A stretch of DNA of 63,803 bases, filler included, from Parachlamydiales bacterium (GCA_020051075.1; 3 parts of 3 records of this genome joined end to end with filler, not necessarily neighbours in it), one strand, 5' to 3'. Shown: positions 12,730 through 40,030, numbered from the whole stretch's first letter. Made by a program: numbers and translations. Notes: a model not told the origin generated them from the sequence alone.

Positions 12730-13506
12730 ATGTATGTAAACACCATTCTGCTAAATGGTAATCCTTTTTTTGAAGCTTACTCGGGATCCGACGTTTTGGG
12801 TAAACTAATTTTTTTAGGATTATACGCTCTTTCAATTTGCAGTTGGACTGTATTATTACATAAACTCTGGGTGACGCATCAAGCGAAGAAACATGCGCGT
12901 CAGTTCTATGAGGCATTCCTCCTGCAGAAATTGAATCCTCTTAATTTAGATTGTGAAGGAATGAAGAAACGACAGAAAGTCAACCCTTTCTTGGATCTCT
13001 ACCAGGTTTTAAAAAAGCAGTGTTTAGATGTTTTGGCCAAAAACCGCCATTTCAATAAGCTCATGCAGAGCGAGGCGCAGCAGGAGGGAGGAGGGCAGAG
13101 TCAGCTTTCTCCGACATCATTGTCTTTAAGCGATATGGATTACGTGGCGTCTCACTTATCGACGCAAGTGGCCCGCCAAGTGAAATTTTTAGAGAAAAAC
13201 CTCTATATCTTATCGACGACAGTGAGTTTGGCCCCTTTTTTAGGGCTGCTTGGGACTGTATGGGGAATTCTTACCACGTTTTCAGAGATGCAGTCGCAGG
13301 CGGCTGGCAGCACACATCAGATGGTCCTTGGGGGATTATCCCTTGCATTGGCAACGACAGTCTTGGGATTGCTTGATGCGATCCCTGCTTTAATTGGGTT
13401 GAATTACTTAAAAAATTCTATCCGGGAGTTTACAACTGAAATGGATGGATTTTCAAACGATATTTTAGCTGCTGTTGAAATGCAATACCGCAGAGTGGAC
13501 AATTAA
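12730..13506 (+). CDS. tolQ: TolQ/ExbB/MotA proton channel protein
   Basis: APFLGLLGTVWGI, ALATTVLGL. Confidence 0.9.
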   Translation: MYVNTILLNGNPFFEAYSGSDVLGKLIFLGLYALSICSWTVLLHKLWVTHQAKKHARQFYEAFLLQKLNPLNLDCEGMKKRQKVNPFLDLYQVLKKQCLDVLAKNRHFNKLMQSEAQQEGGGQSQLSPTSLSLSDMDYVASHLSTQVARQVKFLEKNLYILSTTVSLAPFLGLLGTVWGILTTFSEMQSQAAGSTHQMVLGGLSLALATTVLGLLDAIPALIGLNYLKNSIREFTTEMDGFSNDILAAVEMQYRRVDN

Positions 13507-13507
13507 G

Positions 13508-13936
13508 ATGACGAGGAGCCGTCTAGTTTTTCCCAGTCGATTAGCTGATGAAGAGCCAACGGTCAATTTAACGCCATTGATCGATGTTGTGTTTGTGATC
13601 TTGATTATGTTCATTGTGATTGCCCCTCTCCTCGAGCTTGATCGTGTGGAATTGGCTGATGCTCCGCTGGCAGGTTTGGGTCAAGCGCACTCTGTTCAGG
13701 AGAGTAGCCCAATCACCATTCATGTTCTTCAAGACAATACGATCCGTTTTAACGATCAAATTGTCTCGCCCACAGAGTTGACGGCGTTGCTGCTAGACGC
13801 GAAGAGACATTATCCACAGGCCCGTCCTCAAGTTTTTCATGATCGACGCGCCTATTTTGGGACTTATCAATTGGTAAAAAATGCTGTTGAATCAGCAGGG
13901 TTCTCTCAGATCGACATTATTTTAAAACCTTCATAG
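13508..13936 (+). CDS. tolR: TolR/ExbD protein
   Basis: NLTPLIDVVFVILI; ATG 1 nt after the tolQ stop. Confidence 0.9.
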   Translation: MTRSRLVFPSRLADEEPTVNLTPLIDVVFVILIMFIVIAPLLELDRVELADAPLAGLGQAHSVQESSPITIHVLQDNTIRFNDQIVSPTELTALLLDAKRHYPQARPQVFHDRRAYFGTYQLVKNAVESAGFSQIDIILKPS

Positions 13937-13943
13937 AATTTAG

Positions 13944-14954
13944 ATGGCATCCTCTTACGACCCTTCATTATCTTTGTTAAGCCAACAGCCGAGACAAGGT
14001 TGGGTGTTGACCGCTTTGATCGTCGTTGCGATCCACCTTGGGGCAATCGCCTTTGTACTATTCTATTCTCCTGCTGAACCCCAGCTGAAAAAGAAGGCAA
14101 AAGTGATTGTCCAAACAGTCCAATTAAATTCACAACAGCGCATTCAACTGACAACGCCTGTGCCGCCCCGTCCTTTACCGGAGGCTGGAACGAAAGAACA
14201 GAATGAAAAAGTTGCAGCAGCACCTGAAGTTTCCCCTGCTAAGCCGAAAGCTCCGCCGCCACCAGCGAAGTCAGAGCAGAAGGAAGTGAAAAAAACTGAG
14301 CTGACTCAACCGGTCCAAAAACCTGAAGCTGTTAAAAAAACTGCTGCACCAGCCAAGCCGGCTCCCGCCAATGTTGCTAAACCTAAAGCACCTGCCCAGC
14401 CTCAAAAAAAACAGGTCGATGAAAAAGCCGAACTAGAGAAGAAGAAACAGCAGCGGGAAAAAGCCGAAACAGAAAAATTGAATCGAAAAAAGGCTGAAGA
14501 AGAAAAGGTCAAGCAGGAACGGCTCGCTGTGGCTTTAGGGGCATTAGGGAAATCTAAACAGTCGCGCGAGCAGATGCATCACCAGCCAGATCGGACCAGT
14601 CTAGAACAAGTGGCAGACCCGAAAGCCATCGAAAGTTTATCAATAGATGTTTGGTTGTCTGATCCAGGGGAAAAAGGGGACACTTGGGGTGTGCAAGAGG
14701 TGAATTATCGCGACCAGGTGGGAAAAACTCTCAAGTCCGAGTTGAAGTTGCCAGAATATGGGGCAGTCACGATGCGGCTGACACTCGATCACCTCGGAAA
14801 GGTGATTAAAGTTGAGATTGTGAATAGTCAAAGTTCAAAAAATAGAGCCTATGTAGAAAAAAACATCCCTATGCTATCATTTCCCCCTTTTGGCCAACAG
14901 TTTAAAGGAGAATTGCAGTGCACGTTCTCATTCATCTTAAAAAATCATTCTTAG
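13944..14954 (+). CDS. tolA: TolA/TonB-like energy transducer
   Basis: N-terminal TM with His, K/P/A/E-rich linker, TonB-C-like end; between tolR and tolB. Confidence 0.8.
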   Translation: MASSYDPSLSLLSQQPRQGWVLTALIVVAIHLGAIAFVLFYSPAEPQLKKKAKVIVQTVQLNSQQRIQLTTPVPPRPLPEAGTKEQNEKVAAAPEVSPAKPKAPPPPAKSEQKEVKKTELTQPVQKPEAVKKTAAPAKPAPANVAKPKAPAQPQKKQVDEKAELEKKKQQREKAETEKLNRKKAEEEKVKQERLAVALGALGKSKQSREQMHHQPDRTSLEQVADPKAIESLSIDVWLSDPGEKGDTWGVQEVNYRDQVGKTLKSELKLPEYGAVTMRLTLDHLGKVIKVEIVNSQSSKNRAYVEKNIPMLSFPPFGQQFKGELQCTFSFILKNHS

Positions 14955-14965
14955 GTTACATATAT

Positions 14966-16342
14966 ATGATATTTCTGTTTCGATTTACCTGTATGCTCTG
15001 CCCCTTTGTTTTCTCAGGATTGTTTGCCGCAATAGAGGAAGAGCCTACTGTGGTTGAATTAGCCACAGGAAGCAGCCTTGAACCGTTATATCTATTGCCT
15101 ATCGAGGGGAGGGCTTCCCATTTTGATCAGACTTATTTAGACAAACTTGAAGAGGTTCTAGCGTTTGATTTGAATCACAACGGCGTTACCCTCGTCGTTC
15201 AAGCGCTTGCCGATTGCGACCAGGCTGGACGAAGCACGCCGCCAGCGCAGCTTGCATCGATTGATCTATGGAAACGGCGTCATCTTTCCTATGTTGTCAA
15301 GTTGGAAGCTGAAGAGCAGTCTTTAGCCGTTGCGATCTTGGATGTGCAAAAGAAAGCCTTGAAAACCTCTGCCCCTTTGACGTTGTCTGGGAATTTTGCG
15401 GTAGATAGACGGACCATTCATCGCACCGCTGATCTCATCCATCGCACGCTATTTGGAGCCGATGGGATCGCTTCGACCCATCTCCTCTATGCGATGACAG
15501 TGAAAAACTCTCTCGATAGCAGCAAGTGGATTTCAGAAATTTGGGAAATTGACTATGATGGGGCGAATGCCCGTCAGTTAACGCATGACAACTCTTTCTC
15601 CATTACCCCTGTTTACCTGCCTCCCAAACCTGGCTTCAAGCCAGGCGGTTTCCTCTACGTCTCTTATCAGCAAGGTGAACCAAAAATCTACCTATCGACA
15701 TTAAAAGGGGGGAAACCGCAACGGATCATCTCTCTACTGGGGAACCAGTTTATGCCATCCATCTCGCGCCAAAGAGATGCAGTCGCTTTCATCAGCGATG
15801 TCACAGGCAACCCCGATCTCTTCTTCCAGCCTTTCTCTCCTGAACAAGGTGCGCAGGGGAAACCCTACCAGATTTTCTCTGCGAAACAGGCGACGCAGGG
15901 ATCTCCAACGATCAGTCCAGATGGCAAGCAGGTGGCTTTTGTCTCCAATAAGGATGGCTCGCCAAAAATCTATGTGATGCCGATTCCTGATCCAGGTGTG
16001 AGTTTAAGGGGTGTTCACCCCACCCTCATCACCAAACGAAATCGGGAGAACTCCGCGCCAGCCTGGTCGCCTGATGGCAGCAAAATCGCCTACTGCGCGC
16101 GGGGGAATGGGGATCGACAGATCTGGGTGTATGACCTCAAATCTAAAAAAGAAACACAGGTGACGGAAGGTCCAGGCAATAAGGAAAACCCCTCGTGGGC
16201 GCCTAATAGCCTCCATCTCGTTTATAACTCATCAGACCAAAACAATGGCGACCTCTTCCTGATCAACCTCAATCAGCCCGAACCCACTCAAATCACTGCT
16301 GGGAAGGGGGAAAAGCGGTTTCCTAGCTGGGAACCTCGTTGA
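14966..16342 (+). CDS. tolB: TolB beta-propeller protein
   Basis: DYDGANARQLT, PD40 repeats (SPDG, PAWSPDG, PSW). Confidence 0.93.
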   Translation: MIFLFRFTCMLCPFVFSGLFAAIEEEPTVVELATGSSLEPLYLLPIEGRASHFDQTYLDKLEEVLAFDLNHNGVTLVVQALADCDQAGRSTPPAQLASIDLWKRRHLSYVVKLEAEEQSLAVAILDVQKKALKTSAPLTLSGNFAVDRRTIHRTADLIHRTLFGADGIASTHLLYAMTVKNSLDSSKWISEIWEIDYDGANARQLTHDNSFSITPVYLPPKPGFKPGGFLYVSYQQGEPKIYLSTLKGGKPQRIISLLGNQFMPSISRQRDAVAFISDVTGNPDLFFQPFSPEQGAQGKPYQIFSAKQATQGSPTISPDGKQVAFVSNKDGSPKIYVMPIPDPGVSLRGVHPTLITKRNRENSAPAWSPDGSKIAYCARGNGDRQIWVYDLKSKKETQVTEGPGNKENPSWAPNSLHLVYNSSDQNNGDLFLINLNQPEPTQITAGKGEKRFPSWEPR

Positions 16343-16353
16343 TCAAAGATATG

Positions 16354-16583
16354 CAGGATAGCAAGCAACAGGATAAGCAAAAGGGACAAAACAGGATAGG
16401 CAGGATCGCTTCGCGGCAAGATAGACAGGATATTTTACAGGATGGGAAGGATAGGAAAGATGATGATAAAAAGGAGATAAACTTTTCTTTTATTGTTTGA
16501 TTGACTGGACTTTCCTATTATCTTGCTTATCCTACCGCGAAGCGATCCTGCCCATCCTGTTTTGTCTCTTTTGCGTATCCTGT
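16354..16583. repeat. Family B long imperfect inverted repeat
   Basis: Left arm CAGGATAGGCAGGATCGCTTCGCGGCAAGATAG, right arm CGCGAAGCGATCCTGCCCATCCTG; between convergent tolB and MATE. Confidence 0.9.
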
Positions 16584-16605
16584 GATGGGGTTGGGACATT
16601 TGTGT

Positions 16606-17982
16606 TTATGGTGTGGCTTCAAGGTGAGGGCTTGCCGTCATGGGCAAGGCCGATTCCAGCTTTTTCATGCGCCATTGGTAAAGGAGAGCGTTAACCGCAT
16701 ACGTGATCGCCAGCATCGACCAAAACTGATCTGCTGGAATCACGAAAACCTCAATTGCAACATACATGAATAGATATCCAATCATCCAGCACATTAATCC
16801 CATAAACAACGAGAAATTGGTGTCTTTAAAGGCCAAAACGTAGCTGATCGGAATGCATGCAAAGGTGGAAAATACAAAAGATGCCCATACGCCAAGGAAG
16901 ACATTTTTGATCGATTCTGGAGTCATCTCAACTTTGGAGAAGAGAAGGTCGAACGTTTGAAGGGGGAAAACAACGAGTGGAATGCCACAGAGAATAATAG
17001 TGGTGGATACAATCGTTAATCCAGATCTAAACGCTCGGTTTAACTCTAAGTAGCGCTTTGACCCTAAAAGGTGGGAAACCACTGTGATTTGTGCTTGACA
17101 AGTGGCATCTCCTAAGAAGGGGAGAAACAAAAATAACGTCCCACCCACCGACAGAACGAGTGGGTAATCCTCCTCTTTAGTTGTCATGAGGTGAGCGATG
17201 GCTGCCCAGCTGGTGATGATGAGAACTCGATTCATCGCTCTTAAGATTCCCGGTTGGATGCATTCCCAAAAGAGTTTGGGTTTAAATGTCCAATTGCTAG
17301 AACTGTAAATTTTCTTAAAATCGGGCTGCAGAAAAACACCCAGCAACACTAAGCAGAATCCCCCTTGTGCAAGGAAAGTGCTAAAAACTCCTCCTAATAA
17401 CCCCCATGCGGGGATCAGATTCCCCCAGCCAAAAATGAATAGATAGGCGAAGAGGATTTTTATCCCTTGTGAAATTAATGTTAAAACTAATATGAGTCGT
17501 GTTTTACCCTGTCCAAGAAAAAAGCAAGAGAGGGTGGCTGCAAGGGGAAATAGGAAATTAATCGAAAGCAGTGTTCGATAATAGGGCAACACAATGGCTT
17601 CAATGGAGGTCCCATGAAAGTAATATCTCTCATAAAGCAATCCGATCGGGACAGTGATCAACATGGACAGAAGAGAAAACCAGATGAATTGCCAGATTCC
17701 TGGACCAATCGATGTCCATTCTTGAGCTCCGTACCATCTTCCAACACAAACCTGAGCCATCATGGCTAGAGCAACAGTGGGGAGTTGCGTCACCTGGCAG
17801 GCATAAGCGGCACTGACGGCAGCTGTCATTGCTTCTGAAGATAGTTGTCCGAGAAATATTTTTTCGATAAAAAGAAAAAGACAGTTTGAAAAGGTCATCA
17901 ATAAGATGGGAAAGAAAAGGAGGAGCAATCCTTTTATTTTCCCATCTAACAAGAGAGATGGTCTCTCAGATAATCTTTGCAT
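16606..17982 (-). CDS. MATE family efflux transporter
   Basis: About 12 TM helices; FIEKIFLGQL, FFLGQGKT, IFGWG..P..GLLGG, VSHLLG; start taken at MQRL. Confidence 0.85.
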   Translation of the reverse strand: MQRLSERPSLLLDGKIKGLLLLFFPILLMTFSNCLFLFIEKIFLGQLSSEAMTAAVSAAYACQVTQLPTVALAMMAQVCVGRWYGAQEWTSIGPGIWQFIWFSLLSMLITVPIGLLYERYYFHGTSIEAIVLPYYRTLLSINFLFPLAATLSCFFLGQGKTRLILVLTLISQGIKILFAYLFIFGWGNLIPAWGLLGGVFSTFLAQGGFCLVLLGVFLQPDFKKIYSSSNWTFKPKLFWECIQPGILRAMNRVLIITSWAAIAHLMTTKEEDYPLVLSVGGTLFLFLPFLGDATCQAQITVVSHLLGSKRYLELNRAFRSGLTIVSTTIILCGIPLVVFPLQTFDLLFSKVEMTPESIKNVFLGVWASFVFSTFACIPISYVLAFKDTNFSLFMGLMCWMIGYLFMYVAIEVFVIPADQFWSMLAITYAVNALLYQWRMKKLESALPMTASPHLEATP

Positions 17983-17996
17983 TGGTTTTGAACTGA

Positions 17997-18401
17997 TTAT
18001 TCCTTTCCGAAGAGATAAGGTGTGCATTCCCCTTCATTGCAATGCATAATTCGATGAAGAGCCACATCATTGAATAACTCATGCTCGGCGCAAGGTCCTC
18101 CTGGACAGTAATTTTCCCAGCACCATCCTTCAGCGGTCATTGTGACGACGAATGGTTGGTGTCTGACATGACCGTCTGAATGAATGAATGTGACATAATA
18201 ATATGTCGCATGATTCTCTTCGTCATTTTCTGCCTGTTCTCCGGCACGTAAAACATAGAGGTAAGGGATTTTCAAACCCCTGAGCATTTTCTCTGCCTTT
18301 AATCCAGGAATATGACCCACCCAAGCAGGATGATTTTGGATTTCCTGATTGACCCTACTCAGTTTGGTTAGCTCAAAATCTAAAATAGCTTCTTGTGACA
18401 T
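17997..18401 (-). CDS. Small SH2-domain-like protein
   Basis: W-VGHI...AEKML...YVLRAGE (FLVRES equivalent)...YYVTF...VRH follows the SH2 pattern. Confidence 0.7.
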   Translation of the reverse strand: MSQEAILDFELTKLSRVNQEIQNHPAWVGHIPGLKAEKMLRGLKIPYLYVLRAGEQAENDEENHATYYYVTFIHSDGHVRHQPFVVTMTAEGWCWENYCPGGPCAEHELFNDVALHRIMHCNEGECTPYLFGKE

Positions 18402-18402
18402 G

Positions 18403-21400
18403 TTAGCGCTCCTTTATTTTGTAATACCCTCTAGCCAAATTGAAAGGCCCAGTAGGTGTTCGATAAGTGACTTGCAAATCTTTCTTTATCAATGCCTGAT
18501 TAGGCTGATAAAATAATGGGAAAACAGGAACCTCTTCGCACAAAATTTTTTCTGCGTTTAAGAGGTAAGTAGAACGTTGAAAAGGGCTCACTTCATGTTC
18601 TCCCAGTTCAATGAATTCTTTAAATTGTGGGTGTTGCCACTTTGTAAAATTGATTTCTTGATTTCTTGATTTGAATGAATATAGCGTATAAATAGGATCG
18701 TCGACCCAAGGCTGCCAATGCATCAAAGCGATCTGGAAATTCCCTTTGCTCAGCTTTTTGAACATCGTATTCCATGTTTGAGCTTTGAGTTCACATTTGA
18801 TACCAAAACACTCTTGAAACTGCTCTTTTAAGCATTTGGCTGTATATTCCCGTATTCCTTTTTCCACGAACATCAGGCTTAAAGGAGCGAGATCTCTTTT
18901 GGTCATATTTAACTCATCCAAAGCCTCATCCATCAATTGTCGTGCTTTATCCGGATCGAAATCTGGAAATGAGCAGCCTCGCTGCTCGTTCTTGTTAGGT
19001 AGGTGGATTGAGAAGGCTGGATTGATCGGGAGGAATGCTTCCGAAACAATCTTGGCCCGTTGAACGGCGTAAGCAAAGGCTTGTCGTAATTTGATATTTT
19101 TCAAGGGAGGATAATTTAAACTCATTGCGCACCAGCACACAAGGCTATTTGTAAACGAGAGGATTCTTTCATTTTCCTCAGGTTTATAAAATGATTGCCA
19201 TCCCCCAAATGGATTACCAACCCAATCGACCTCATTATTTTGGAAGGCTTGCATTGCTTGAGTTGGGCTGAGGTGAGAGAAGATCACTTGATCCAAGACA
19301 ATTTGATTGTTTTCCCAATAGAGAGGATTTTTGATTAGCTGGAAGCCTTGAGAGGGTTGGTTCAATTTGAGTTGGAATGGCCCGTTGCATGGGTAGTTAT
19401 GTTCACATTGATAGGACCACTGTGGATGCTGTTGGTCAATGTGTCGATGGACTGGGGAGTAGAGAGGGTGTGCTGTTAACTGAAGGAAATAAGGAGTTGG
19501 ACTAACCAGTTCTACCTTTAATGTGCGGTCATCGAGGACGTGAATCCCAATGTCGTCCGCAGAAACTTTTCCCTCTTTAGCCTCTTCAGCATTTTTGATT
19601 GGGAAGAAGAGGTAGGCAAAAGTTGTCTTAAAATCAGGAGATAAAATCTTTTTCCAAGCATATTCGAAGTCGTAGGCAGAAACAGGACTCCCATCATTCC
19701 ATGTTGTGGAACGGAGTTTAAAGGTATAGCTCTTCAGATCAGGGGAGATCTGAATGGTTTCGGCGACAGCATTTTCCACCTGTCCATTGAGATTGAAGCG
19801 GGTGAGCCCTTCGAAGAGAAGACGGATCAGTTCTCCCGATACAGATTCTCCACCGATACGAGGATCTAAGGAGAAGATCGAGTATTCAAAGCCAATCCGG
19901 AGCACCTGTTGATTTTTCCTCTTTTCTTGCCACTGATGGAGAGTCTGGCTGACGCTGTTGATGAACGTGTCGACATCTTCGGCTTCAGCTTCAGGGAAGA
20001 CACAGCTAAAAAATGTTTTGCCAGAGTAATTGATAAAATTGTAAGCGATATCTAAATGGCTGAAGGTTTCTTCTTTAAGCAGATTTAATAAGGTCTCTTC
20101 GAGAGAAGATCCTTCTGCTTGGACAAATAAATAGACTTGATCATCTTTTCGGAAGGTTTTGATTTTATAAGACGAGTTTTTTGAGATTTTTTGTCTGTAG
20201 GTCTCTAGAAAATATTTGAATAGCGTCTCTAAAATGTCCTGATGTAAGACAGCTTGTTTTTCTAATGGGGTCAAGGCATAGAAAAACGTTTCGAGGAGTT
20301 CGTGATCGTCCTGAGTGATTCCAGGGAAGCGCTCTTTGAAATCTTGCAGCAGCTCTTGTTGTTTGATGATGATCCCACCATTATAATCGCGGAATTCTCC
20401 GATCGCAGCGGTGATGAGAGCAGCAACTTTTTGTCGAGCGATGTAATAGTTGAGCGAACCGTCGGATCTTAGGAGAGAAGAATCACGAGGGAGGTGGATT
20501 TGGAAGATGTGTGCTTCGATCGGGTGGCTGTCAATGTGTCTAACAGTGATGATCTTTTCTGAAACAAATTTTGTGTTGTAGAAGCAGTCTTTTAAAGAGA
20601 AGCGGTGGAATGGTGAGATGTGCACTAATGTGATGCGGAAGACGATCTCAGTCCCTGTTTGCTGGTCTAGATGGATGCAAGCTTGAGGGATATCTTCTTG
20701 AGATTGGATTTCTTGGCTCAAGACGAGGATATTTTTATAAACTTCTTCTTCGTTCAATCCCATGTAAATGGAAGGAGAAAGCTTCTGGATGCTGTTTGAG
20801 ACTTTTTGCGTTAAGTAGTCATTGAGGAGGATTTTTTCATTGAGCGAGAAGGGAGTCGCATCTTTTTTCTCAATCTCGAAGTAGAAGATTTTCAGGTTTT
20901 TATGCTGTGACGTATGGTGATAGGAACTTTCTTTGACCAATCTCAAGTGAGGGATGGGGAGGTGCTTTTGCAGAGCCAAAACGATGTTTTCTTCATCGAA
21001 GAGCTCATATCTATCCATGACATTGAAACCGATGAGGCAGCCTAACACTGGCTTCGATGAGAAGGGAAATTGTAGCGCGATGGAGACCAGGCGGACTTCT
21101 AGGTGTCTTTCATTAGGGAGAAGGGTTGTTTTTCGTAGCAGTTTTTTCTGCATGAGGTTCGTTGCCAGCACAACGCGGAACAGATGAGCAGAGTTGCGGT
21201 GGTCTAAGTATTTTCGCGAGGCAATCAAATAGAAAAGGAAGAGGTCGGAATAGATGGAGTTATCTGTGGATTGCGGGAAGCGGGCGATCCATTTGTGAAG
21301 TTTTTCGCAAACTTCGTAGTATGACGAATGTAAAAAAAGTGGAACTTGGTCGAGGTAAATTTCTCTTGCAAGTTCTGGTTCCATGTCTGCCTTCAACTCA

Positions 21401-21405
21401 ATCAT
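18403..21405 (-). CDS. OppA/SBP_bac_5-family peptide-binding domain fused to a ~500-aa unknown N-terminal region; no signal peptide
   Basis: SLDPR, LFEGLTR, YTFKLR, WNDGSPVSAYDFEYAWK, NGPF, KNPLYW; start uncertain (21474, 21405 or 21384). Confidence 0.85.
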   Translation of the reverse strand: MIELKADMEPELAREIYLDQVPLFLHSSYYEVCEKLHKWIARFPQSTDNSIYSDLFLFYLIASRKYLDHRNSAHLFRVVLATNLMQKKLLRKTTLLPNERHLEVRLVSIALQFPFSSKPVLGCLIGFNVMDRYELFDEENIVLALQKHLPIPHLRLVKESSYHHTSQHKNLKIFYFEIEKKDATPFSLNEKILLNDYLTQKVSNSIQKLSPSIYMGLNEEEVYKNILVLSQEIQSQEDIPQACIHLDQQTGTEIVFRITLVHISPFHRFSLKDCFYNTKFVSEKIITVRHIDSHPIEAHIFQIHLPRDSSLLRSDGSLNYYIARQKVAALITAAIGEFRDYNGGIIIKQQELLQDFKERFPGITQDDHELLETFFYALTPLEKQAVLHQDILETLFKYFLETYRQKISKNSSYKIKTFRKDDQVYLFVQAEGSSLEETLLNLLKEETFSHLDIAYNFINYSGKTFFSCVFPEAEAEDVDTFINSVSQTLHQWQEKRKNQQVLRIGFEYSIFSLDPRIGGESVSGELIRLLFEGLTRFNLNGQVENAVAETIQISPDLKSYTFKLRSTTWNDGSPVSAYDFEYAWKKILSPDFKTTFAYLFFPIKNAEEAKEGKVSADDIGIHVLDDRTLKVELVSPTPYFLQLTAHPLYSPVHRHIDQQHPQWSYQCEHNYPCNGPFQLKLNQPSQGFQLIKNPLYWENNQIVLDQVIFSHLSPTQAMQAFQNNEVDWVGNPFGGWQSFYKPEENERILSFTNSLVCWCAMSLNYPPLKNIKLRQAFAYAVQRAKIVSEAFLPINPAFSIHLPNKNEQRGCSFPDFDPDKARQLMDEALDELNMTKRDLAPLSLMFVEKGIREYTAKCLKEQFQECFGIKCELKAQTWNTMFKKLSKGNFQIALMHWQPWVDDPIYTLYSFKSRNQEINFTKWQHPQFKEFIELGEHEVSPFQRSTYLLNAEKILCEEVPVFPLFYQPNQALIKKDLQVTYRTPTGPFNLARGYYKIKER

Positions 21406-21733
21406 CTTGTTTACACGTTGGTTTGATGCTATCAAGAAAAACATGTTGTATGTGACAGATGTTTTTGTCAACATGTTTTCAAAAAAAAATTGAGAAATAT
21501 TTTTTTTCTTGTCGTTACTTATTCAAAATCAAGTGTTTATAAAATAAAATTTTTTTTTTCAAAAAACAAAGTTTGACATTTTTTTTGGTTATTTCAAATG
21601 AGATTGTCTGTTTTTGCTTGTTCAAAAGATAAAATATTGTTCTAAACCGTATTTTGAGCTAGTTATTGCGCATGTTGTGATCCATCGATAAAAATAAAAT
21701 AGCCCTAAGGGTAAGGGACAATGGGCTTTAAAT

Positions 21734-21792
21734 GATGTGCCGCCCTTTCAGAGCTCATCATTTGGGTTTGAATATTCCCAGGCCTGACGGCC
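21734..21792 (+). repeat. Palindromic repeat family D
   Basis: CGCCCTTTCAG and TATTCCCAGGCCTGACG; inverse copy at 4802-4847. Confidence 0.7.
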
Positions 21793-21924
21793 TTATCTTT
21801 ATACACATCTTCCCAGTGCTTGTTCTGGCAACGAGAATTGCCCGTTTTTCTTTCGCTGCTACCGCAGCTCTGGATTGGTCTGCGCCTTGACCCCACGTTC
21901 CGGTTGCGGAGCTCCCTTCACGCG

Positions 21925-21984
21925 CATACTTGTACCCACATCTTTTTGCCATGCGCATCAGTCTAAAACCTTTGCCCTCTTGCA
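21925..21984 (+). repeat. 60-bp dispersed direct repeat (other copy 39591-39650)
   Basis: 58/60 identical by eye, first 43 nt exact. Confidence 0.9.
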
Positions 21985-22022
21985 ACCCTTCAGGCTGCGA
22001 TATTTAACTTATTCATACCCAG

Positions 22023-22122
22023 NNNNNNNNNNNNNNNNNNNNNNNNNNNNNNNNNNNNNNNNNNNNTTAATTAATTAANNNNNNNNNNNNNNNNNNNNNN
22101 NNNNNNNNNNNNNNNNNNNNNN
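22023..22122. other. Artificial contig-join spacer (N44-TTAATTAATTAA-N44)
   Basis: Six-frame stop linker inside an N-run. Confidence 0.98.
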
Positions 22123-22214: not shown

Positions 22215-22363
22215 GAAGAGGACTTCCGCACTCCAAACGCTTCGCGAAGGCATGGAGAGTTTTGGAGACGCGAAGCGATAGAGTAATTCTGGAGAAACGA
22301 ATGCCTGAGAAATTGATCTAGAATAAAGCGGAAGAGGACTTCCGCACTCCAAACGCTTCGCGA
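22215..22363 (-). repeat. Two tandem family A REP units with part of the REPIN interior
   Basis: GAAGAGGACTTCCGCACTCCAAACGCTTCGCGA at 22215-22247 and again near 22331-22363; AATTGATCTAGAATAAAGCG shared with the elements at 39691 and 55679. Confidence 0.9.
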
Positions 22364-22370
22364 AGTACAA

Positions 22371-23645
22371 TCAAGACCAGCCAGCTTTTGCATTGAGGAT
22401 CTTGAGCGCCTCATCTTTGATTCTAACCTCTCCCTCAGGGGCGCCACACCAAGATTTTTTTTGAATACGGGCATAGTTGGGAAGTGCTTGCAAAAGAGAT
22501 AGGAGTTTTACACTCTGTCGATGCTCAGTTAAGTTCTCTACGATTTTCAAGAAAAGGAGATAGTCATCCAATTGCCGTTCGATGAATACATGAAGTGTGA
22601 GGATGGCCCCCTCAATCTTCTTTGAAGTCGCAACCAAGGGCAAATCCTCCGCAACTATTCGTGTTACAACCCAATTTGCAATTTCCAATTTGTTCTGTTC
22701 TATTGCCACAAAAGCCATCTCAACAAAGATGTTTCCCGAATAGGGGCCCATTCTTTCGACGGCTTGCAGCGCAAGGTCATAATACCCACTTTCAAACAGC
22801 TTGGTGGCCAATGATTGAAAGCGCTCATTCAAAAGGGCTTCCTTTTGGTGACGAGGAAAGCGTGAGGAGTCAAAAGGAAGAAGGCGCTTAGCAAATAGAG
22901 CCTTAGCATCATCCACTAAGCTGAGATTTTTTTGTGATTGAGAAGAGGCCCCCTGTTGAGAAAGTCCTTCTTGGATTTGCCTCTGATACTCATGAATAAA
23001 TGCTTCGCAGTACCTACAGTCAAAAGGAACGTCGGGAGAGAGTTCTCTTAATGCCTTGCAAATCACCAGTGGGGTAGGGACCATGTTGTTGTCTTGAGTA
23101 TTAATCTCAATCAAATCTACCCTGACAGATGAGATCTGAAGTTTTTGCAACAGAGCCTCTTTTAACCAAGAGGGAAGCTCTCTGAAGACAGTATTGAGCC
23201 TTGTTGCGATGTTCTTATAACGCTCTGCTTCAAGGCGATGATAGGCCACATGACGATACGAGGTTGATATGGAAGGAAGCTGCGAATCCCTGCGTTGATA
23301 CATTTTATGATTTTCGGCTTTCTCGACCCCTTGGATCAGATCGATGAGTTTTTGAATCTCCTTGCTTCTTTCGAAAGGTTCGACAATCGCTTCGAATTCT
23401 CGTTGAATCTCTTGTAATAATTGATGTGATGAATCACCTTCACTTGTTGCTTGGACCTCTTTGAAGAGATGAAATAATTGGCAGATCCGCTCTGAAACCC
23501 TCTCAGCTCCAGACTTGATCTTTTCAAACTCAGCTCTTTGAGTCGAAAGGTCTCTGACCAGAAGAGGACGATAGGGGAAGGTAGGCGGCATAACAGTTTG
23601 CGCTGTTCCCATAGATGCGTGAGAATAAGAAGAAAAGTGTTGCAT
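22371..23645 (-). CDS. Hypothetical helical protein (possible effector)
   Basis: 424-aa ORF, AAGGA RBS, S/T-rich N-terminus, no recognised motif. Confidence 0.7.
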   Translation of the reverse strand: MQHFSSYSHASMGTAQTVMPPTFPYRPLLVRDLSTQRAEFEKIKSGAERVSERICQLFHLFKEVQATSEGDSSHQLLQEIQREFEAIVEPFERSKEIQKLIDLIQGVEKAENHKMYQRRDSQLPSISTSYRHVAYHRLEAERYKNIATRLNTVFRELPSWLKEALLQKLQISSVRVDLIEINTQDNNMVPTPLVICKALRELSPDVPFDCRYCEAFIHEYQRQIQEGLSQQGASSQSQKNLSLVDDAKALFAKRLLPFDSSRFPRHQKEALLNERFQSLATKLFESGYYDLALQAVERMGPYSGNIFVEMAFVAIEQNKLEIANWVVTRIVAEDLPLVATSKKIEGAILTLHVFIERQLDDYLLFLKIVENLTEHRQSVKLLSLLQALPNYARIQKKSWCGAPEGEVRIKDEALKILNAKAGWS

Positions 23646-23773: not shown

Positions 23774-24751
23774 TCACCGCGTCGGATACAGAATCTCATA
23801 AGAGTGCTGCACCCCTTTCAACACTGCTTCAGTCGCGGTTGTCGGATTTTGACCGGAATCTCGAAATGAAAAGAAAGCAACAAGGATATCATCTCCCATC
23901 GCAGCTGGTGGAAGTTTGAATTTTTGTAACACGTAATCCATCACCATTCTTGAAGTTCTTCCGTTTTGATCATGAAACGGATGGATCGATACAATCCGTT
24001 GATAAGCTTTTCCCGCGGTCTCTATTGGGTTGAGTTCTCCTTTTTTGCACTGCTTTAAAGCAAAATTCAACCAACCAACTAATTGCTCCATTTCCTCTTT
24101 TACACGTCCTGAAGGAGCATAGAGAAAATCGGTACGACCTCCAGCAGCGACTCCTGCGTCGCCTTCTTGGCGGAGCCTCCCTCCCCCTTTCTGACCCAAT
24201 AGTCGATTGATCTCACAAATCCATGCAAGAGTTGGCTTATGTTTGGGATCGTTAGCGGCACTGCGGACCATTTCGTCTGCAACCTGCCAGCATTTTATCG
24301 CAGTTGGATCTGCTTTTAACGTATTAGATCCTTGCATTCTCTTTGACTGAATTTCTTGGATCCTTGATTGCTCCAGCGGTGATCGAGGAGAGAAGTCAAC
24401 TGGTGTTCGATTTAAAAAGAAAGCATGACATTTTTTAGATGTCTCTGGATCAATCTCTGCTTTGAAATTCTCTTTCGCCGAAATCCAGCAGACTCTTAAA
24501 GTTGTGTCATTTGGTGCTATCCCGTCGCTCTTCATCTTTTCATACAAATCGTAGACCAAGTGTGATTCACTCCAAGTCTTCGATAGGTGAAAGAGTTTAT
24601 TATAAATATTAATATTGGGTTCAATTCGACGGTTTGAAAAATCCGTGAAGAGATTCTGATAGAGGTTGTGATCTTTTTCCTGTCCACAGGCATGGACAAG
24701 TTTTAAGAAGGTTGCTTCATTAATTTCTAATCTAAAGGGGTATTTAATGAG
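23774..24751 (-). pseudogene. PPR-repeat + Fic-domain protein, apparently 5'-truncated
   Basis: Fic motif HPFHDQNGRTSR; frame stays open upstream of the TTG at 24559 up to a stop at 24752-24754 with no ATG/GTG, encoding PPR-like repeats. Confidence 0.7.
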
Positions 24752-39690: not shown

Positions 39691-39930
39691 CGCGAAGCGT
39701 TTGGAGTGCGGAAGTCCTCTTCCGCTTTATCGACGAACAGCATTGATAAGAGCTTGTGGATAGATTATAGTTAGTTTTAGGCGATAGCAGGAGACGTGGA
39801 TAAGCTTGAGAGAAAAGTAGGAGATACTGAGCGCTGCGCGAAGCGGTAGAGAAATTCAAAAGACACGAATGTCTCAAAAATTGATCTAGAATAAAGCGAA
39901 AGAGGACTTTCGCACTCCAAACGCTTCGCG
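39691..39930. mobile_element. 240-bp REPIN/MITE-like element (family A) with ~40-bp terminal inverted repeats
   Basis: Colinear with 55679-55919; ends exactly at the contig break. Confidence 0.85.
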
Positions 39931-40030
39931 NNNNNNNNNNNNNNNNNNNNNNNNNNNNNNNNNNNNNNNNNNNNTTAATTAATTAANNNNNNNNNNNNNN
40001 NNNNNNNNNNNNNNNNNNNNNNNNNNNNNN
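39931..40030. other. Artificial contig-join spacer
   Basis: N-run with TTAATTAATTAA at 39975-39986. Confidence 0.98.

Follow-up and report, generated by a model that had tools for sequence, protein, structure and literature searches.

SH2 domains are the classic phosphotyrosine readers of eukaryotes, substrate-binding proteins of the OppA/DppA type are the receptors of ATP-binding cassette (ABC) importers, and the usual gene neighbour of a MATE exporter is a repressor gene. We analysed a stretch of 63,803 nucleotides (nt) from a Parachlamydiales bacterium (GCA_020051075.1), referred to here as the window, in which three consecutive minus-strand genes encode a fusion protein ending in an OppA-type domain, a small stand-alone SH2 protein and a MATE-type membrane transporter (Table 1). 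An earlier note on this DNA, drawn from the sequence alone, had described the three genes as co-oriented and separated by 1 nt and about 14 nt and had called the trio undescribed; the stop and ATG positions of the minus-strand open reading frames (ORFs) confirm the arrangement, and we found no published description of the trio, whose members are named 'hypothetical' in databases. The module fits none of the transport or signalling architectures with which we compared it, and we rate it as not assignable to a known kind of system. The novelty lies in the module as a whole, because each domain belongs to a known superfamily. We tentatively interpret the trio as a cytoplasmic ligand receptor and exporter module with the SH2 protein as adaptor, an interpretation to which we give a little less than an even chance.

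The OppA-type domain is homologous over its full length (PF00496) to the receptors of ABC importers. In contrast to these receptors it has no export signal, no OppBCDF permease and ATPase genes and no anchoring Asp, the three grounds on which ABC-type oligopeptide uptake was rejected, and it is fused behind an ACT-like segment of 487 amino acids (aa). TRAP and TTT systems, which rely on periplasmic proteins of the DctP or TctC type for substrate import, resemble the locus in concept only, in that a secondary transporter, not an ABC transporter, is the partner of a substrate-binding protein. Here the binding domain is of the OppA type and apparently cytoplasmic, and its partner is a MATE protein, from a family known as exporters; TRAP/TTT-type uptake was set aside on binding-protein type, location and the exporter-family partner. 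Like MATE exporters of the NorM/DinF type (PF01554), the transporter is predicted to be polytopic and scores above the MatE cut-off, but it is divergent, has no solved relative by sequence and is encoded together with a predicted cytoplasmic binding protein.

The SH2 effectors of Legionella, as described in the available part of PMC6208348, share the conserved betaB Arg with the chlamydial SH2 protein, which differs from them in being a stand-alone protein of 112-150 aa whose gene shares an operon with those of a binding protein and a transporter; that part of the source makes no mention of chlamydiae. For the N-terminal half of the fusion (FusN), the best structural match is the N-terminal arm of L-GDH180 (ACT*1-3 and helical motifs; PDB 7jsr; PMC8175468, in its available part). 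Unlike that enzyme, the fusion has an OppA-type domain instead of a dehydrogenase domain, and it has no GDH_ACT or GDH_HM sequence match. The anti-phage defence models of PADLOC gave 0 matches for all three proteins. In the literature we found no description of a signal-less OppA fusion and none of SH2 proteins in environmental chlamydiae, where the supplements of Parachlamydiaceae genome papers could mention the genes.

Domain content of the three proteins

The window copy of the SH2 protein has no Pfam match even at E 10 and no NCBIfam match. Together with 51 relatives of 112-150 aa in the protein collection it forms a family of 52, whose sole organism-named relative, a protein of a Parachlamydiaceae metagenome-assembled genome, is annotated 'hypothetical'. 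PF00017 is found at E ≤ 1 in 39 of the 52 members (best 5.5e-5), and comparison of the family profile with solved chains returned 38 matches at E ≤ 10, all of them SH2-bearing (p85, SHP-1, SHP-2, Grb2, Src) and weak (best E 0.023). An AlphaFold2 (AF2) model of the protein (pLDDT 85, pTM 0.79) yielded 22 Foldseek matches against the PDB at E ≤ 0.001 (TMq 0.35-0.57), and every listed row is an SH2 domain, including those of SOCS2, Src, p85, PLC-gamma1, Grb7/10/14 and LNK, among others. Its ESM Atlas neighbours are chlamydial clusters in which 16-29% of the members carry PF00017. We conclude that the small protein represents a divergent but genuine SH2 family; the 'SH2-like' label of the earlier note is upheld by the AF2 and Foldseek results, by PF00017 in relatives and by the profile-profile match.

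Residues W27, G29, A36, E37, K38, R52, G54, Y69, H81, P83, F84 and W93 are invariant in all 52 members. In the HMMER alignment to the p85 SH2 domain the family's 'yvlRaGe' lies over 'flvREs' and its 'ikHqPF' over 'vkH', and R52 and H81 align with the Arg and His of the SH2 phosphotyrosine pocket, which we take to be the FLVRES-type betaB Arg and the betaD His. Gly33, kept in at least 90% of the family, stands where SH2 domains usually have an Arg, presumably that of alphaA.

Invariance of the two pocket positions would also suit a protein directed at the host. The SH2 protein, perhaps together with the fusion, may be delivered by the type III system of chlamydiae and bind phosphotyrosine proteins of the host in the manner of Legionella SH2 effectors, with the MATE gene mechanistically unlinked, an alternative that we regard as unlikely. 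The SH2 domains described in bacteria come from Legionella, where most of the proteins that bear them are translocated into the host (PMC6208348, available part), and the eukaryotic ESM Atlas cluster nearest to the chlamydial protein is one of amoebozoan SH2 domains (score 0.88), which we treat as a lead only. The patchy occurrence of the family (74 of 400 sampled genomes) and the intermixing of chlamydial families are reminiscent of accessory host-interaction genes; SH2 genes are duplicated in tandem (two and three copies in two loci, and three places on one contig of genome G135), and a second class of chlamydial SH2 protein is encoded outside the operon. Host delivery is harder to reconcile with the 1-nt and -4-nt junctions that join the SH2 gene to those of the transporter and the binding protein across many families, and with one natural protein, P0055, that carries fusion and SH2 domain on a single chain.

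The second-class protein (L059:1962-2804, G320:C124) is 280 aa long, with its SH2 domain in the C-terminal half, and is encoded outside the fusion-MATE block next to small membrane proteins on the opposite strand. It scores 27.2 bits against PF00017 (cut-off 21) and matches the profile of the operon SH2 family at a probability of 96% (E 3.6e-9). Open frames of about 245-290 aa that hold weak SH2-profile places resemble it in length. Tandem SH2 genes, in two or three copies, were seen at L011 (G118:C58), at L006 (G358:C55) and on G135:C7, where three places share one contig; they sit between the fusion and MATE genes or downstream of the fusion gene. At L046:2044-3924 (G099:C1), about 1 kb away from the local MATE gene, there is a tandem row of four ORFs of 133-140 aa that are matched neither by Pfam nor by the SH2 profile.

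In the fusion protein, SBP_bac_5 is matched at residues 566-938 (E 1.6e-62), and the OppA-type models of NCBIfam score far below their equivalog cut-offs. The best solved relative of the OppA-type domain is OppA 8are (E 4e-85, query residues 8-509 on chain residues 15-525), and the OppA proteins of E. coli and Salmonella match at E 2e-43. In Salmonella OppA the side chain of Asp419 hydrogen-bonds the amine of the peptide's first residue (PMC5736914, available part). Pairwise HMMER alignments place Asp419 of S. enterica OppA opposite Trp413 of the chlamydial domain (codon 18706-18708), and over 35 family domains the position is occupied by W (22), P (6), L (4) and K, C or A (1 each), with Asp in 0 of 35. 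With the Asp replaced throughout, a standard peptide anchored by a free N-terminus is not the ligand that one would first expect.

No signal peptide or lipobox was found on the fusions, and none of them has an N-terminal hydrophobic stretch. Among 42 members of the fusion family, 39 are devoid of any hydrophobic 19-residue window of at least 1.6, and the other 3 carry one inside the N-terminal half. When N-termini were ranked by a 12-residue window over the first 70 residues (the 8 highest of the 42 being listed), the two most hydrophobic turned out to be stand-alone OppAs with lipobox signal peptides, encoded beside fusions (L039, L041), and the six next-ranked begin like fusions and have no lipobox. 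The fusion is most likely cytoplasmic, unless it is exported by a route with no recognisable signal; the earlier note had also taken it to be retained in the cell, and the difference from the adjacent stand-alone OppAs speaks for this. A canonical oppA-oppB-oppC run lies on another contig of the same genome. Neither Pfam nor NCBIfam recognises an output domain on the fusion, whose output would then have to go through partners.

FusN comprises 487 residues and has no Pfam match at E 10, GDH_ACT1-3 and GDH_HM included; searched by sequence against solved structures, it gave only two rows, both at chance level. Its AF2 model, built from 38 sequences (pLDDT 83, pTM 0.53), contains three ACT-like modules. 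The best two Foldseek matches are to the 180-kDa glutamate dehydrogenase of M. smegmatis (E 5e-7, probability 1.00, TM 0.22), the low TM value being expected because the chain is flexible and multi-domain, and the best structural matches are 7jsr, 9hv0 and 7a1d. VIA-align placed model residues 28-209 and, separately, 222-339 on enzyme residues 463/500-612 with Z scores of 8.1-8.2, a level that VIA-align itself calls borderline. The L-GDH180 arm consists of ACT-like (ACT*) domains and helical motifs and is a proposed metabolic sensor, and the topology of the FusN modules agrees with the description of ACT* in the available part of the source (PMC8175468). Low-score ESM Atlas neighbours of FusN carry GDH_ACT and GDH_HM families. 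In its predicted structure FusN looks like the sensor arm of L-GDH180, and it is not a member of that family by sequence.

A search of the FusN profile against 1.84 billion representatives returned 839 clusters at E ≤ 0.001, and the 150 best of these belong mostly to three size classes: about 1000 aa (FusN and OppA), about 1150 aa (an extension of 150-200 aa, FusN and OppA) and about 640-660 aa (extension and FusN). The latter two classes were confirmed directly. The cluster of a 663-aa member holds proteins of Candidatus Protochlamydia amoebophila named 'hypothetical' or 'uncharacterized' in NCBI and UniRef. FusN is encoded in 361 of the 400 sampled genomes and in 0 of 29 from family f4, whose genomes measure 1.0-1.3 Mb; annotated only as 'hypothetical', it is a large unstudied piece of chlamydial biology. 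The window's genome (G000) encodes one FusN protein only. Paralogues of about 640-660 aa with FusN alone (a 180-aa extension and no OppA domain) were seen at L043:6666-8657, L044 and L045; G099 and four further genomes from the window's family encode them, and none was seen in the window's genome, which is 99.9% complete. The L043 gene adjoins a gene of the amino-acid-kinase family.

This distribution bears on a second alternative, in which the ACT-like and OppA-like modules let the fusion sense or sequester cytoplasmic amino acids or peptide-like compounds, its targets being encoded elsewhere, and the MATE gene is merely co-regulated, as its product would handle related metabolites. We regard such a metabolic sensor or buffer as possible, if doubtful. 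Outside family f4 nearly all sampled genomes of the phylum encode FusN, it occurs both without OppA and without a nearby MATE gene (46 of 135 fusions), and a role as metabolic sensors in allosteric control is described for ACT-type domains (PMC8175468, available part). The fusion nevertheless bears no recognisable output domain of its own, the MATE orthologue group tracks the fusion subfamily closely, and the gene junctions suggest coupled translation.

The transporter scores 54.1 bits against PF01554 (MatE; cut-off 24.9) and 78.6 bits against TIGR00797, under the cut-off of 147.4, which marks it as a divergent MATE member. MATE transporters have twelve membrane helices and act by cation-coupled efflux; here a crude hydropathy count gave 6-10 hydrophobic windows per protein in 39 family members, and a search by sequence of solved structures gave no match. 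The transporter is present at E ≤ 1e-40 in 107 of 401 genomes. MurJ and MATE proteins both belong to the MOP superfamily, and at L046:10490-13918 (G099) the block is flanked by a 596-aa stand-alone SBP_bac_5 protein and a MurJ lipid II flippase, possibly by coincidence.

Conservation of the block across chlamydiae

For comparison we fetched 40 loci, which cover 43 of the 46 best SH2 places outside the window (those left out, G272:C113, G272:C324 and G332:C40, lie at contig starts) and which together with the window's contig make 41. The order fusion, SH2, MATE on one strand is kept in 33 of the 41: 30 in plain form, one with two SH2 genes, one with three, and one with extra fusion copies. Among the other 8 loci, 2 are cut by contig ends, 1 has SH2 and MATE genes and no fusion, 1 has the SH2 gene alone, and 4 are rearranged with the genes still adjacent. 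Intergenic gaps are mostly -4 to about +25 nt; that between the fusion and SH2 genes, computed from the longest ORFs, is mostly between -4 and +26 nt. Clustering of all ORFs over the 41 loci gave three wide families (in 41, 38 and 39 loci), the next family being present in 7. The flanking families tested (a ClpB-like ATPase, a methyltransferase, a 226-aa ABC ATPase, a mannose-6-phosphate isomerase, an amino-acid permease and a hydrolase) include no Opp permease.

Within the window, Pfam identified no ABC permease or ATPase among the 50 ORFs scanned. The contig with the operon ends at 22022, 548 nt upstream of the longest fusion ORF, and the lack of opp genes in the window is therefore weak evidence alone; it is backed by the related loci, which have no conserved fourth gene. 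The earlier note's statement that OppBCDF genes are missing beside the block accordingly holds for the 50 window ORFs and, as to conserved neighbours, for the 41 loci. The note had also named two findings that would overturn it, a failure of the trio to recur in other genomes and fusions that usually lie beside oppBCDF and are exported; the trio recurs, and neither property of the fusions was seen.

A block may keep its gene order for reasons other than shared function, travelling as a mobile unit or persisting by descent. The flanks vary among loci, and members of different chlamydial families mix on the fusion tree, a pattern consistent with transfer. We nevertheless consider this explanation very improbable, given that order and tight spacing persist at 30-60% protein identity over at least 9 family labels, that the genes are adjacent even in the four rearranged loci, and that no mobile-element gene is conserved beside the block.

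The SH2 family occurs in 74 of the 400 sampled genomes, and these 74 all belong to one taxonomic order; within the window's own family it is present in 4 of 46. Gene places were cross-tabulated using the best 150 of 670 FusN matches and MATE matches at E ≤ 1e-40, and as many contigs are short the resulting counts are floors. The 74 genomes hold 98 SH2 places, with both partners within 6 kb in 64, the fusion only in 12, the MATE gene only in 5 and neither in 17; this last group appears to consist mostly of weak matches in open frames of about 245-290 aa, the size of the second SH2 class, and one of them was viewed directly. For the 135 fusions of at least 900 aa, both partners are nearby in 63 cases, MATE only in 16, SH2 only in 10 and neither in 46. 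By inspection, a FusN frame of at least 900 aa stands among the 150 listed for every genome with a MATE place in the best 93, apart from G273, whose fusion lies on a 2.5-kb contig.

Eight fusion-MATE pairs with no SH2 gene, 50-205 nt apart, were found (L047, L049-L054, L056), and their existence indicates that the SH2 protein is accessory. On the proposal in the earlier note that the trio forms one unit, the conserved tight block agrees with it; the eight pairs show that SH2 is not obligatory, and the fusion family is wider than the trio (361 of 400 genomes). Overall, the earlier reading is supported in part: the block, the SH2 domain, the signal-less OppA domain and the lack of Opp genes stand, and an obligate SH2 does not.

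A quick maximum-likelihood tree of 47 fusions, with a midpoint root only, places SH2-linked fusions on both sides of the root, with chlamydial families intermixed. In P0055, a database protein of 1134 aa, fusion and SH2 share a single frame, the SH2 Met following directly after the OppA end; judged from sequence, this could be a real gene fusion or equally a lost stop codon in one contig. A metatranscriptome contig of 2242 nt (run X1), about 91% identical to the window, covers 17850-20073, from the MATE start through the SH2 gene into the fusion gene; run X3 gave short pieces and run X2 none, and stretches without coverage carry no information. The bridging contig is a weak hint of joint expression in a relative. 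At L022 (G188:C1:49000-68999) three full-length fusion paralogues surround one SH2 and one MATE gene, and a short OppA-like fragment follows the MATE gene.

Proposed function

For the cytoplasmic receptor and exporter with an SH2 adaptor, we infer contacts, sensing, adaptor action, export direction, ligand class and cytoplasmic location. The core would be a gene pair, a cytoplasmic receptor with three ACT-like modules and an OppA-type clamp and a MATE-type secondary transporter, both acting on the same compound. The receptor would bind this compound in the cytoplasm and then either pass it to the exporter or control the exporter's gating. Such a ligand would probably be derived from amino acids or peptides and not be a plain peptide with a free amino terminus. 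The SH2 protein may serve as an optional third subunit, docking by its conserved Arg/His pocket on a phosphorylated or anionic motif of a partner. In favour of this reading stand the conserved block with its operon-like spacing, the fusion-MATE pairs that lack SH2, the weak RNA hint, the single-chain protein P0055, the missing export signal, the separate oppA-oppB-oppC run and the ligand-binding character of both halves of the fusion, and MATE is the partner that tracks the fusion best; a complex prediction for the OppA domain and the SH2 protein, both supplied as alignments, scored 0.00 and weighs neither way. If fusion and MATE work together, they would represent a new coupling of ligand recognition to secondary transport.

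Several observations weigh against a receptor working with the exporter and an SH2 adaptor. The ACT-like assignment of FusN comes with moderate scores (Z about 8, TM 0.22, no sequence match), and MATE proteins are not known to depend on a binding protein. Neither partner is nearby for 46 of the 135 fusions, and in genera g96 and g128 of family f9 the MATE orthologue and the fusion-SH2 pair are on separate contigs; fusions with no neighbouring MATE gene indicate that the fusion can work without an adjacent one. The fusion tree requires at least 4 losses or gains of the SH2 gene. No column of the fusion alignment separates SH2-linked from SH2-less copies, the MATE columns that do so amount to one hydrophobic position, Ile430, and no Tyr or acidic docking motif was seen in the columns of either protein. 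The bridging RNA contig comes from a relative, may reflect DNA in the library and falls short of proving a single transcript.

The presence of an SH2 family beside two bacterial genes of 'housekeeping type' across many chlamydial families raises the question of whether an SH2 domain has a job inside the bacterium. The SH2 protein might work there by reading a phosphorylated or anionic mark on the chlamydial binding protein or transporter, with fusion and MATE forming a 'reverse' binding-protein-dependent secondary transporter, in which the cytoplasmic OppA-type clamp and its ACT-like sensors take up a metabolite for export. This is a bold extension that we think improbable; if true, it would be a hitherto undescribed transport logic and would give the SH2 domain its first endogenous role in prokaryotes, and would bear on the origin of the domain.

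Coordinates and surrounding sequence

The window consists of three contigs joined by N runs and TTAATTAATTAA linkers at 22023-22121 and about 39930-40030. Positions 1-22022 (G000:C60) are the sole part contiguous with the operon, and 40031-63803 correspond to G000:C65. The three minus-strand ORFs of the operon span 18403-21474 (1023 aa, the longest ORF), 17997-18401 (134 aa) and 16606-18027. Position 21405, the end given in the earlier note, corresponds to Met24 of the longest fusion ORF, and the alignment to relatives begins at about residues 24-50.

Table 1. Features of the fusion-SH2-MATE operon, in window positions.
Feature	Position	Strand	Description or basis
Fusion gene	18403..21405 (longest ORF to 21474)	-	About 1000 aa from Met24; no signal peptide, no membrane segment
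Fusion N-terminal half (FusN), ACT-like (predicted)	19945..21405	-	AF2 model, Foldseek, VIA-align
OppA-type (cluster C, SBP_bac_5) substrate-binding domain, full length	18403..19944	-	PF00496, E 1.6e-62
Spacer between fusion stop and SH2 ATG, 1 nt	18402..18402	-	Read from sequence
Stand-alone SH2-domain protein, 134 aa	17997..18401	-	52 relatives, AF2, Foldseek, PF00017 in relatives
Arg52 codon and His81 codon of the SH2 gene	18246-18248; 18159-18161	-	Invariant residues
Spacer between SH2 stop and transporter ATG (17982), 14 nt	17983..17996	-	Read from sequence
MATE-family (MOP superfamily) membrane transporter, 458 aa	16606..17982	-	PF01554 match
Upstream non-coding stretch to contig end	21475..22022	-	No minus-strand ORF of at least 80 aa; promoter presumed

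Promoter-like sites are not enriched in 16200-22022 (8, against 10.4 +/- 3.2 in shuffled sequence), and terminator-like sites number 10 over the same range, against 5.7 +/- 2.3 in shuffles. Between the three genes, no promoter- or terminator-like site was found on their strand. Rfam gave no match in or upstream of the block, and none near the gathering score in 21475-22022. By eye, 21700-22020 is richer in G+C than the A+T-rich 21475-21700 and reaches the contig end.

The operon's neighbours in the window are sdhCAB, tatD, dsbD and a run of tolQ, tolR, an unnamed gene and tolB that converges on the transporter gene. This run occupies 12730-16342, its unnamed member being a 336-aa protein with no Pfam match, and the MATE gene converges on it directly after tolB, with 16343-16605 between them. 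No pal-like gene was seen beside the tol run, and Pfam gave no match for a 90-aa ORF at 16501-16773. Metatranscriptome contigs accumulate in 16300-16486. Elsewhere the window encodes a TopA-SWIB fusion and a Pom-type porin, both in keeping with an environmental chlamydia. By eye, a direct repeat of some 35 nt was noted where the second contig starts, at about 22215-22249 and 22331-22365; it lies inside or beside an ORF at 22371-23645, which is followed by a Fic-domain gene at 23774-24559.

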